Assembly (NCBI GenBank): GCA_002432655.1
Contig: DJFZ01000055.1
Location: 1,643 to 65,642, forward strand
Direction: 5' to 3'
Length of the DNA stretch: 64,000 nt
From: Thiotrichaceae bacterium UBA5859
GTDB taxonomy: Bacteria > Pseudomonadota > Gammaproteobacteria > UBA5859
Part shown: in pieces, positions 25,352-28,543 of the stretch
How positions within the stretch are numbered: position 1 is the stretch's first letter
Layout: the number at the start of each line of letters is the position of its first letter
Notes under the pieces: model-generated
The model's input: the letters and a program-made list of their open reading frames with translations, nothing else
The model's database searches: none
What the model was told of the DNA's origin: nothing
Position numbers and translations under genes: made by a program

Positions 25352-27139
25352 ATGTCCTTCTTGGAGCAAGTCGTTGTTTATCTTGCCGCTGCTACTATTG
25401 CCGTGCCGCTGTTTCACCGCTTTAAGTTAAGTGATGTACTGGGCTATTTAATAATTGGCGTCGTGCTTGGTCCATCGGGAATCGCGTTTGTCAGCGATCC
25501 CGAACGGATCATGGAATTTGCTGAGTTGGGCGTGGTATTTCTGCTATTCATCATAGGATTAGAACTCAACCCTGCCCGTTTATGGGTATTCCGTCGCTAC
25601 CTCATTAATCTAGGTGCCACCCAAGTGTTTGTGGTGGGTACATTTCTAGCCGTGCTCGCACGGCTATTGGGACTAGATTGGGCAGCTGGATTTGTCATCG
25701 GATTCGCCTTAGCGCTTTCCAGTACTGCGTTCGTATTACAGTTCCTCAGAGAGCGTAACCACTTGATGCGTCCACATGGGCGCGCTGCTTTCGGTATTCT
25801 CTTGTTTCAGGATATTGCCATTATTCCCTTGTTGGGAATCATGTATGCGATGGCTCCAGCCACAGAATCGCCGGTTAACAGTCATATGCTTCTGCAGCTC
25901 GTCAGCTCCTTGGGATTGATCGCTGCATTCATCCTCTTTGGACACTTTCTGCTACGCCCGGTATTCAGATTGTTGGCTGAAGTGCAAATTAGAGAAGCTT
26001 TCTTAGCGGGGGCATTATTATTGGTATTAGGCTCAGGACTATTGATGGAGTATGCCGGCATGACCATGGCGTTTGGTGCGTTTCTGGCTGGAGTGCTGCT
26101 AGCCGACTCGGAATATCGCCATCAACTAGAAGCCGATATAGCCCCTTTTAAAGGTCTGCTACTTGGTTTGTTTTTTATTGCCATCGGTATGCTTGCCGAC
26201 CTCAGTTATCTCTCTACTGAACCACTCACGGTGTTGATGCTAGTCACCATCTTAGTAGGCATGAAAACCAGTCTAATCTTTTTTCTTGGGCGTGGATTTA
26301 AATTATCTCTACAGGACTCCTTTGGTTTGGGGATCTGCCTCTCTCAAGGTGGGGAATTGGCATTTGTCATTTTGACGGAAGCGGCGAACGTCAATCTGAT
26401 CACACAAGAAGTTCAGTCGATACTGGTACTGGTGGTTACCTTATCTATTGCCACCACCCCCATTCTCTATTTTTTTTACGAACGTTTTTTTCGTTCGTTA
26501 AAAGATGAAGAGTATGACGCCAACCTGCCGGGAGAGTCTGAAATCATTATTGCCGGTTTTGGTCGCTTTGCACAGATCATCGCGCGCGTGCTGGCATCAA
26601 AGAATATCCCCTTTACCGCCATCGAGAAAAACCCATCCCGGGTGGAGTTTGTGCGACGGTTTGGCAACAAGATTTATTTTGGCGACGCCACCGATCTGGA
26701 TCTACTCAGAGCCGCCAATACTGAACAAGCTAAAATTTTCATTCTAGCGGTGGACGACCTGGAAGATTCCGTGCTGATCGCGCAATTGATTCGCGAATAC
26801 TTTCCGCATCTAGTGATTTTGGCACGCGCACGCAATCGGCAACATGAATTGGTACTCAGAAGTCTGGGTGTGCAAAATGTGGTGCGCGAGACGTTACATT
26901 CGAGTCTCAATTTAACGGAACAAATACTCACGGAACAAGGCTTCAGCCAGGAGGATGCCCATTCCATCGTCGAAACCTTTAAAGAGCATGATGCAAAAAC
27001 ACTCATGATGCAGCTGGCAGTACATCAAGATGAGGAAGCGCTAATCCAGACCGCAAAAAGTGCCGCTGAAGAGTTGAGAGCACTATTTGATCGAGATGAG
27101 CAAGCTAAAGAGCACATAGATGAAACAGGCCCCCAATAA
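25352..27139 (+). CDS. Monovalent cation:proton antiporter-2 family K+ efflux protein (KefB/KefC-like) with C-terminal RCK/TrkA-N domain.
   Basis: The N-terminus parallels KefC (LAAATIAVPLFHRFKLSDVLGYLIIGVVLGPSGIAFVSD). The C-terminal Rossmann region reads IIIAGFGRFAQIIARVL...FGDATDLDLL. Confidence 0.85.
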   Translation: MSFLEQVVVYLAAATIAVPLFHRFKLSDVLGYLIIGVVLGPSGIAFVSDPERIMEFAELGVVFLLFIIGLELNPARLWVFRRYLINLGATQVFVVGTFLAVLARLLGLDWAAGFVIGFALALSSTAFVLQFLRERNHLMRPHGRAAFGILLFQDIAIIPLLGIMYAMAPATESPVNSHMLLQLVSSLGLIAAFILFGHFLLRPVFRLLAEVQIREAFLAGALLLVLGSGLLMEYAGMTMAFGAFLAGVLLADSEYRHQLEADIAPFKGLLLGLFFIAIGMLADLSYLSTEPLTVLMLVTILVGMKTSLIFFLGRGFKLSLQDSFGLGICLSQGGELAFVILTEAANVNLITQEVQSILVLVVTLSIATTPILYFFYERFFRSLKDEEYDANLPGESEIIIAGFGRFAQIIARVLASKNIPFTAIEKNPSRVEFVRRFGNKIYFGDATDLDLLRAANTEQAKIFILAVDDLEDSVLIAQLIREYFPHLVILARARNRQHELVLRSLGVQNVVRETLHSSLNLTEQILTEQGFSQEDAHSIVETFKEHDAKTLMMQLAVHQDEEALIQTAKSAAEELRALFDRDEQAKEHIDETGPQ

Positions 27140-27245
27140 TAACATTTTGGGAGCAGTCGATTTTTCATTAAAATAGCCGCCCATTAGCAAACCAAACGCT
27201 GATCGCTATACAGTCAAACCTGCAAATATCACACGGAGTGTTGAA

Positions 27246-27542
27246 TTGATTAAAGTGAAACAGAGTGCCATACATGGCAAAGGCTTGTTCGCCTCTCGCC
27301 CCATACGAGAAGGTCAATGGTTAGGAAAATGTATGATCCGACACGGCGTGAAAAAAGTCGGGCCCTACTCTCTTTGGGACGATTCCGGCGAAACATTCGT
27401 CGAAGTGATGTGTCGGCTCAGATTCATTAACCATTCAAAAGAGCCCAACGTGGAATATCAAGATGATTTATCTGTCATTGCGCTTCGGGACATTCGTCCA
27501 GGAGAAGAACTCACCCATGACTACGGGGACGACTGGGAATAA
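27246..27542 (+). CDS. Minimal SET-domain protein (putative lysine methyltransferase), 98 aa.
   Basis: Contains FINHSKEPN (NHSCxPN SET signature with Cys replaced by Lys), the N-terminal GxG region (IHGKGLFA) and the C-terminal ELTHDYG (ELTxDY). Confidence 0.7.
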   Translation: MIKVKQSAIHGKGLFASRPIREGQWLGKCMIRHGVKKVGPYSLWDDSGETFVEVMCRLRFINHSKEPNVEYQDDLSVIALRDIRPGEELTHDYGDDWE

Positions 27543-27931
27543 CGGGCACTCCGCCAAAGGTGTAAATATATTTGACATAATTGGCTGAAAATCTGGCCGC
27601 TTGACTAACAATTAGACATCCAATTCTTCAAATATAATGAAATCACTGATTTTTTGCGATTTCGGCTGACATTTATATCGATTTCATTCAGGAGACTGTC
27701 TATTTTACTGACACTTCTGGAAAAATATGATTATAAAATAACCAAATTAGTTTGAAATTATCGTTTTGAAAGGATTTTCTTACCCTCATGTAAATTTGCC
27801 AATTTGCCTAAATACTAGTTAAGTAATTGATTGCATTGATAATTATAATTGGCATGTGGATTGCAATACAGAAAAACGAAATATCGGTTTAAACAATAAA
27901 AAATCTATTTGTATTTTTCTGGAGGTATTAA

Positions 27932-28543
27932 ATGAAATTCTTGAGAAACACTGTCCTCGCGACTTCACTCACATTCCTAAGCTTTGGTGCCTCTGCGGCA
28001 ATTGTCACCACCGATTTCTTAGATTACATCAGTAAGCCCAATCCGGCAGATTACGGTGATTTCCCCAGCCCGAATCTATGTGAACACGCAATTATCGGCA
28101 CTTGCGACAAGTACGAGTTGATTCAGATAGATTACGATTCTAGCCTATGGGGCAATGATTGGAACAATGTGCTGTCTGCCACCCTAGACGTATGGCTAAG
28201 TAAATTTGACTTCGAATTAGGCGCAGAAATCGCCGTTATCGAAAGCATTGAACTCAGTGCTATCGGTACCTACCTGTGGGCGGAAGTTGATGGATTTGCT
28301 CCTCAAGCATACGGTCCTGTAGATGTATTAAACTTCCTGAAGACCGGTAATGATGACGATGTGTTCACCGCATTATTGAAAGCTGAAAGCAACAACTTTG
28401 AATATCATCAAGCCATTCTCTCTGTGACTTATGAAGATGGCATTAATCCTCCAACTGGCGTACCTGCACCTACCACTCTCCTGTTAATGGGTCTGGGTCT
28501 GTTAGGATTGGGTGCCACCAGACGTCGGGTAGCTGCAGCTTAA
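27932..28543 (+). CDS. PEP-CTERM sorting-domain secreted protein (exosortase substrate).
   Basis: N-terminal signal peptide. The C-terminus reads VPAPTTLLLMGLGLLGLGATRRR, which is a PEP-like motif followed by a hydrophobic helix and an Arg cluster. A 390-bp AT-rich leader lies upstream. Confidence 0.75.
   Translation: MKFLRNTVLATSLTFLSFGASAAIVTTDFLDYISKPNPADYGDFPSPNLCEHAIIGTCDKYELIQIDYDSSLWGNDWNNVLSATLDVWLSKFDFELGAEIAVIESIELSAIGTYLWAEVDGFAPQAYGPVDVLNFLKTGNDDDVFTALLKAESNNFEYHQAILSVTYEDGINPPTGVPAPTTLLLMGLGLLGLGATRRRVAAA

Follow-up and report, generated by a model that had tools for sequence, protein, structure and literature searches.

A 98-residue SET-domain protein of a gammaproteobacterium and its family of small relatives in marine bacteria and bacteriophages

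The viral protein vSET (A612L of PBCV-1, 119 amino acid residues; PDB: 1n3j and 3kma) is a dimeric methyltransferase of lysine 27 of histone H3 (H3K27), and has been called the smallest histone methyltransferase (PMC7019647). SET domains of the MLL/KMT2 and Set1 type (e.g., MLL1, PDB: 2w5y) show a long SET-I region, an NHSC motif and a Zn-binding post-SET region, and they need the WRAD partners. SET genes have been recognised in free-living bacteria since the mid-2000s (PMC3980110), and the characterised prokaryotic proteins are host-directed effectors, of which cpnSET also acts on chlamydial Hc1, together with Go1-SET, which acts on MC1-alpha, and BurB (PMC10117894, PMC12542666). The secreted nucleomodulins (NUE/cpnSET of Chlamydia, RomA/LegAS4 of Legionella, BtSET of Burkholderia and BaSET of Bacillus anthracis) act on host histones (PMC10117894). 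BurB of Burkholderia thailandensis (172 residues; PDB: 9l4t and 9l4v) is a SET-fold methionine S-methyltransferase that converts methionine to S-methylmethionine in the synthesis of dimethylsulfoniopropionate (DMSP); it is a tetramer in which residues C-terminal to the conserved Tyr124, among them V130, M132, R133 and H138, hold methionine and S-adenosylmethionine (SAM) (PMC12542666). Here, we describe a SET-domain gene encoding only 98 residues, found in a stretch of 64,000 nucleotides (the window) of contig DJFZ01000055.1 of Thiotrichaceae bacterium UBA5859, and compare its product with these systems.

The original prediction, made from the sequence letters, had read this open reading frame (ORF) as a minimal SET-domain protein, and its coordinates and length were borne out (Table 1). 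In the profile search that it had proposed, the product matched the Pfam SET domain (PF00856) with 55.4 bits (gathering cutoff 22.4; E 9.5e-15) along the full profile (1-105 of 105), at residues 11-94, which exceeds by far what chance would give. The core signatures GxG, NHSKEPN and ELTHDYG were all located, as was the lysine (K65) that had been said to replace cysteine after NHS. The absence of pre-SET and post-SET regions was likewise upheld: three residues precede the first SET strand, and five follow Tyr93. By all features examined, the 98-residue protein belongs to the SET superfamily. Weak partial matches were its only hits in PHROGs, a PADLOC search gave no match, and an Rfam scan of the whole window found nothing.

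Among solved structures, MLL2 and MLL1 gave the best sequence matches with their SET domains (E about 3e-7), and vSET was also matched (E 8e-6). Like vSET, the window protein is formed by the SET domain without pre-SET or post-SET, has NHSK(D/E)PN with Lys in place of Cys, and ends in YGDD followed by an aromatic residue. However, the two proteins share just 25% identity, and the window protein has 21 residues fewer: the C-terminal tail of 10-14 residues is missing, and both SET-I and the beta-hairpin after NHSxxPN are shorter. Furthermore, vSET targets histone H3, whereas the host of the window protein is a bacterium, which has no histone H3. None of the attributes listed above for MLL/KMT2 and Set1 is found in the window protein. 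As judged from these alignments, its architecture is nearest to vSET and its sequence nearer to MLL-type SET domains. By homology, the G11-K12-G13 loop would contact the methionine moiety of SAM, and Trp97 may substitute for the post-SET aromatic residue.

The tertiary structure was modeled with AlphaFold2 on an alignment of 117 sequences, which gave a mean predicted local distance difference test (pLDDT) of 82.2 and a predicted template modeling score of 0.71. The pLDDT exceeds 90 at residues 1-30 and 61-90, the SET fold covers residues 2-94 of the 98, and the top Foldseek match is the vSET crystal structure, with a template modeling (TM) score of 0.75. According to the model, the core SET fold is complete. 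In relation to canonical SET enzymes, it lacks nearly all of SET-I (about 10 residues are left), the entire C-flank/post-SET and a portion of the hairpin that follows NHSxxPN. In addition, a marginal Pfam match to the SAF domain (21.1 bits, cutoff 21) lies over the last SET strands (27471-27521, residues 76-92); it fits the published idea that SET derived from the SAF/beta-clip fold (PMC3980110).

A search of 5.8 billion proteins gave 135 relatives, nearly all of 91-111 residues (median 99) and with an identity of 45-60% to the query. In the alignment of 117 members, with a mean column identity of 35%, residues S7, G11, G13, F15, N62, H63, E88 and Y93 are invariant, and H10, K12, L14, C56, K65, Y71, D73, D74, H91 and W97 are conserved in at least 75% of the members (K65 in 88%, H91 in 95% and Trp97 in 77%). 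When 1.84 billion cluster representatives were searched with a profile, about 800 clusters (50% identity) matched at E <= 1e-10, and 100 of the 149 best representative sequences examined have 135 residues or fewer. At least 514 GTDB species genomes encode a relative. Most of these belong to Gammaproteobacteria from marine or saline settings: Alcanivorax/Alloalcanivorax, Halieaceae (Parahaliea), Zhongshania, Spongiibacter, Thiohalophilus, Gilvimarinus and Pleionea. The family is already annotated by its domain name, and its novelty is below that implied by the original prediction: NCBI and UniRef label members as 'SET domain-containing protein' (WP_047011043.1, WP_368374547.1 and WP_116364533.1). 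In our literature searches, no publication on this small SET family or on Alcanivorax SET proteins was found.

Genomes labelled as Planctomycetales/Planctomycetota, Spirochaetota and Verrucomicrobiaceae encode relatives as well, and one of the Planctomycetales/Planctomycetota genomes is a complete chromosome. Among the loci studied (L numbers), these copies are L053, L060, L077 and L082 in Planctomycetota, L043, L049 and L062 in metagenome-assembled genomes (MAGs) of Spirochaetota, and L008 in a MAG of Verrucomicrobiaceae. Between these copies and gammaproteobacterial ones identity is 63-71%, while the window protein is at most 59% identical to any genome copy. These identities indicate horizontal transfer, or for some of the MAGs mis-binning; since L053 is on the complete Planctomycetales chromosome, at least that cross-phylum case is real. 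In the MAG Alcanivorax sp. Bin_5, two contigs (L012 and L017) each show a small SET gene with the same RluA and Lon neighbors, which reflects duplication of the region or else heterogeneity of strains in the bin.

The family extends to bacteriophages, with 144 viral contigs of IMG/VR carrying relatives. One viral contig of 46.6 kb encodes a small SET protein of 110 residues that is 41% identical to the window protein. A large phage group has a shorter SET core, with about 25 residues from GxG to NH, and its gene is located between the portal (phrog_1216) and the scaffold/major-head genes of tailed phages. Phage SET loci include L094:4881-5531 (IMG/VR UViG 3300029448_000107), L090:4986-5318, NC_031908 (33002-33355) and NC_029061 (21896-22264). 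Among cultured phages, Pseudoalteromonas phage PH1 and Rhodoferax phage P26218 carry a gene of this group, in both cases with the annotation hypothetical. A tblastn search of GenBank phages with the window protein gave no match, and the cultured phages were matched only by a shorter query of the phage type. UniProt already lists a 'SET domain containing protein [uncultured Caudovirales phage]'. Phages are a plausible vehicle of the cross-phylum spread.

The nearest longer relatives (P0113-P0115) have 152-172 residues and are 37-39% identical over the full query. P0113 belongs to a Candidatus Tectomicrobia MAG and is annotated 'SET domain-containing protein-lysine N-methyltransferase'. They share SPIHGKGLF and GEELTHD with the window protein; however, they keep NHSC and an MLL-like CxCx4C post-SET, both of which the window family lacks. 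Among the best-scoring representatives, the post-SET motif is found only in those longer than 135 residues, and 12 of 16 of these also have Cys after NHS, whereas among the 100 best-scoring representatives of 135 residues or fewer none has the post-SET motif and one has the Cys. The Cys of NHSC is a Zn ligand common to SET and post-SET; the change from Cys to Lys is therefore expected with the loss of post-SET and is no sign of decay. P0113-P0115 show Trp at the position of the invariant catalytic-site Tyr (GEELTHDW), while NHSC and the post-SET cysteines are retained. Furthermore, three very long proteins, P0244 (1415 residues), P0284 (1449) and P0285 (1479), have five to seven tandem SET and post-SET repeats and high scores with the small-SET profile. 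Proteins of 260-370 residues with two SET units were considered as support for dimerization and rejected, as their units are also SET plus post-SET repeats and not small SET domains.

The exact protein was found on a 181-kb contig of a beach-sand metagenome, where the SET gene and both flanking spacers show no difference from the window, and in five further samples. A related organism (L087) shows the same gene order and a protein that is 96% identical. Between the window and L087 the SET gene has 48 synonymous and six non-synonymous differences, with 0.026 substitutions per non-synonymous site (dN) and saturation at synonymous sites (dS); adjacent housekeeping-type genes have dN/dS ratios of 0.005-0.07, leaving aside the Glu-synthase-like neighbor, whose estimate was not valid. 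The SET ORF is a real, conserved gene under strong purifying selection. Its GC content (47.5%) and its GC content at third codon positions are both like those of neighboring genes, and the gene is therefore no recent import into the source genome.

On balance, we lean toward the protein being a SAM-dependent protein-lysine methyltransferase that resides in the cytoplasm and modifies a bacterial protein; in this we infer the use of SAM, lysine as acceptor, an endogenous target and a dimer. The enzyme would be little beyond the SET-N and SET-C halves, linked by a remnant of SET-I of about 10 residues. By homology, the GxG loop (G11-G13) on one side and the RFINHS segment (N62, H63) on the other would hold SAM. 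Tyr93 and the family-conserved Y/H41, Y71, H91 and W97 would line the channel for the substrate lysine, whose amine would accept the methyl group of SAM. Without a post-SET lid, the pocket would probably be completed by homodimerization, as in vSET, or by the substrate. Tyr71 lies eight residues after His63, as Tyr305 does after His297 in human SET7/9, where Tyr305 is the residue of the Phe/Tyr switch; this would predict a low methylation state. The target would most likely be a bacterial protein and not a eukaryotic histone. An endogenous target had also been proposed in the original prediction, and it stands as the most economical reading in view of the absence of a signal peptide, the free-living carriers and the phage relatives, but not on the grounds given there, which were those of the gene neighborhood. 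Phage enzymes meet only bacterial or phage molecules, and they therefore give indirect support to bacterial targets of small SET enzymes. Nucleoid-associated or ribosomal targets, also suggested there, have precedents in cpnSET on Hc1 and Go1-SET on MC1-alpha (PMC10117894), and nothing here indicates such a target.

Several points weigh against a lysine methyltransferase of this kind. The prospective substrate groove (residues 31-60) is modeled with a pLDDT of just 55-71, and a monomer without post-SET or C-flank may have an incomplete pocket. A lysine acceptor is not guaranteed either, given that the SET-fold BurB methylates a small molecule (PMC12542666). Finally, no conserved partner or substrate gene was found across 80 genome loci and the window, where six-frame ORFs within 6 kb were compared by all-against-all BLASTP and clustered.

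A bolder proposal, which we regard as possible but doubtful, is that the family, with lengths of about 91-103 residues, represents the smallest self-sufficient SET methyltransferase, a resident enzyme that would modify a specific bacterial protein with its site completed by a dimer or by the substrate, while its phage cousins would act on host or capsid proteins. If true, the cultivable Alcanivorax, Zhongshania and Parahaliea would offer a tractable entry to the role of SET domains in free-living bacteria. The interest of the family is in its size, abundance and cultivable hosts: an abundant, strongly conserved, bare catalytic core in genetically accessible marine bacteria is convenient for finding an endogenous SET substrate, and suited to defining the minimum requirements of a SET enzyme. 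The window itself adds one more member of the annotated type, without a clue to the substrate.

An acceptor other than protein lysine, either a small molecule as in BurB or another residue as in SETD3, which is a histidine methyltransferase, is an unlikely alternative that is supported by the fold match. Against it, the sequence affinity of the window protein is stronger to lysine methyltransferases than to BurB, and the C-terminal segment with which BurB binds methionine and SAM is absent from a protein that ends so soon after its catalytic-site Tyr. In addition, genes like burI, burD and burE of the DMSP pathway, which lie downstream in the case of BurB, are absent from the neighbors of the SET gene in the window.

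We consider it improbable that the protein is exported to methylate histones or other proteins of eukaryotic grazers, algae or hosts, in the way of NUE, RomA/LegAS4, BtSET, BaSET or vSET. The idea draws on the characterised bacterial SET proteins, which act on eukaryotic histones save for cpnSET (on Hc1) and the archaeal Go1-SET (PMC10117894), on the H3K27 target of vSET, the closest small structural analogue, and on a patchy, cross-phylum distribution like that of accessory genes. However, the secreted nucleomodulins are larger, host-associated and equipped with secretion or nuclear-targeting parts, whereas the window protein has no signal peptide, as the original prediction had expected, and no room for one, no hydrophobic N-terminus, no terminal extension for a secretion signal, no nuclear localization signal and no ankyrin domains. 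The score with the NCBIfam type IV secretion system model AnkI/LegAS4 was negligible (14.4 bits, cutoff 550), and no secretion system is linked at the loci examined. Furthermore, Alcanivorax, Halieaceae and Thiohalophilus are examples of free-living carriers, the source contig was recovered from a metagenome of beach sand, and relatives are present in bacteriophages, which never encounter eukaryotic chromatin.

A decayed or non-catalytic remnant, pseudo-enzyme or spurious ORF, which the original prediction had offered as its alternative and which the very short length, the lack of post-SET and the low model confidence in the predicted substrate-binding region could suggest, is ruled out in our judgment to within a very small residual chance by the strong purifying selection, the SAM-binding and catalytic motif residues invariant in 117 diverse homologues, the conserved start codon and Shine-Dalgarno sequence, the roughly 800 clusters and the narrow length around 99 residues.

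The genes flanking the SET gene are those of the original prediction, a K+ efflux gene upstream and a PEP-CTERM gene downstream (Table 1), and other neighbors encode hotdog dehydratases and acyl-CoA dehydrogenases. Apart from an orthologue of 91% identity, the best matches of the KefB-like protein share about 50% identity with it and belong to Gammaproteobacteria, a Woeseia MAG and Ectothiorhodospiraceae, which gives no placement to genus. This setting was found only in the close, near-identical strains of the window and in L087, and because of this restriction it is silent on function; the claim that it points to an endogenous methylation target is not supported. No window neighbor recurs beyond the close strains among the 80 loci. 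When neighbors were counted per SET clade (33 clades at 70% identity), the commonest was a convergent RluA-type pseudouridine synthase, present in six clades, mostly of Alcanivoracaceae.

Genes related to ubiquinone were found beside the small SET gene in three lineages. In eight MAGs of a single uncultured clade of Gammaproteobacteria (L034, L040, L044, L057, L067, L074, L075 and L078; e.g., L044:6506-7981), a true ubiD directly precedes the SET gene in the same orientation, at most 30 bp away. A paralogue of the ABC1/UbiB family is directly downstream and co-directional in Spongiibacter (L081:8292-9734 and L046), and another is divergent upstream in Alcanivoracaceae (L020, L021 and L031; e.g., L021:6220-7938); these kinase paralogues score under the UbiB equivalog cutoff. 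The adjacency could be chance or retained synteny, and the window shows no link to ubiquinone genes. A variant of the bolder proposal that ties the small SET protein to quinone biosynthesis through these neighbors is more speculative still.

Table 1. Features of the SET-domain gene, its product and its flanks in the window
Feature	Position	Strand	Remarks
KefB/KefC-like CPA2 K+ efflux protein	25352..27139		Upstream flank of the SET gene
Candidate sigma-70 promoter of the SET gene	27147..27174	+	-35 TTGGGA, 16-nt spacer, -10 TAAAAT; from a consensus scan
Shine-Dalgarno sequence GGAG	27234..27237	+	8 nt 5' of the TTG start; read from the sequence
SET-domain coding sequence	27246..27542	+	TTG start, 98 residues, TAA stop; predicted SAM-dependent methyltransferase
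G11-K12-G13, GxG loop of SET-N	27276..27284	+	In S-x-I-H-G-K-G-L-F; aligns to IHGRGLF of MLL1/MLL2
N62-H63-S64-K65-E66-P67-N68, NHSxxPN, preceded by RFI	27429..27449	+	Putative SAM-binding/pseudoknot segment; Lys replaces the Zn-ligand Cys
E88-L-T-H91-D-Y93-G94, ELxxDY with the conserved catalytic-site Tyr93	27507..27527	+	Aligns to ELTYDY of MLL1
D95-D96-W97-E98, entire C-terminal flank	27528..27539	+	Aligns with YGDDY(W) of vSET
PEP-CTERM protein	27932..28543		Downstream flank of the SET gene

No upstream extension of the SET ORF is possible. The ribosome-binding block GGAGTGTT and the TTG start are both kept in the orthologous locus L087, where the alternative in-frame GTG (Val4) is GTA; TTG is therefore the supported start. 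The consensus scan upstream of the gene is, taken alone, no better than in shuffled sequences. Both promoter hexamers are kept in L087 despite saturated synonymous sites and divergence in the remainder of the 106-nt spacer, and this suggests that the SET gene has a promoter of its own. Downstream, the spacer 27543-27931 (389 bp) is AT-rich (30% GC), lies 5' of the PEP-CTERM gene and shows several blocks kept in L087 (e.g., TATTTGACATAAT, ACATCCAATTC..CAAATATAATGAAATCA.TGATTTT and GTCGATTTCATT), again against saturated synonymous sites. This spacer is probably a regulatory region of the PEP-CTERM gene.
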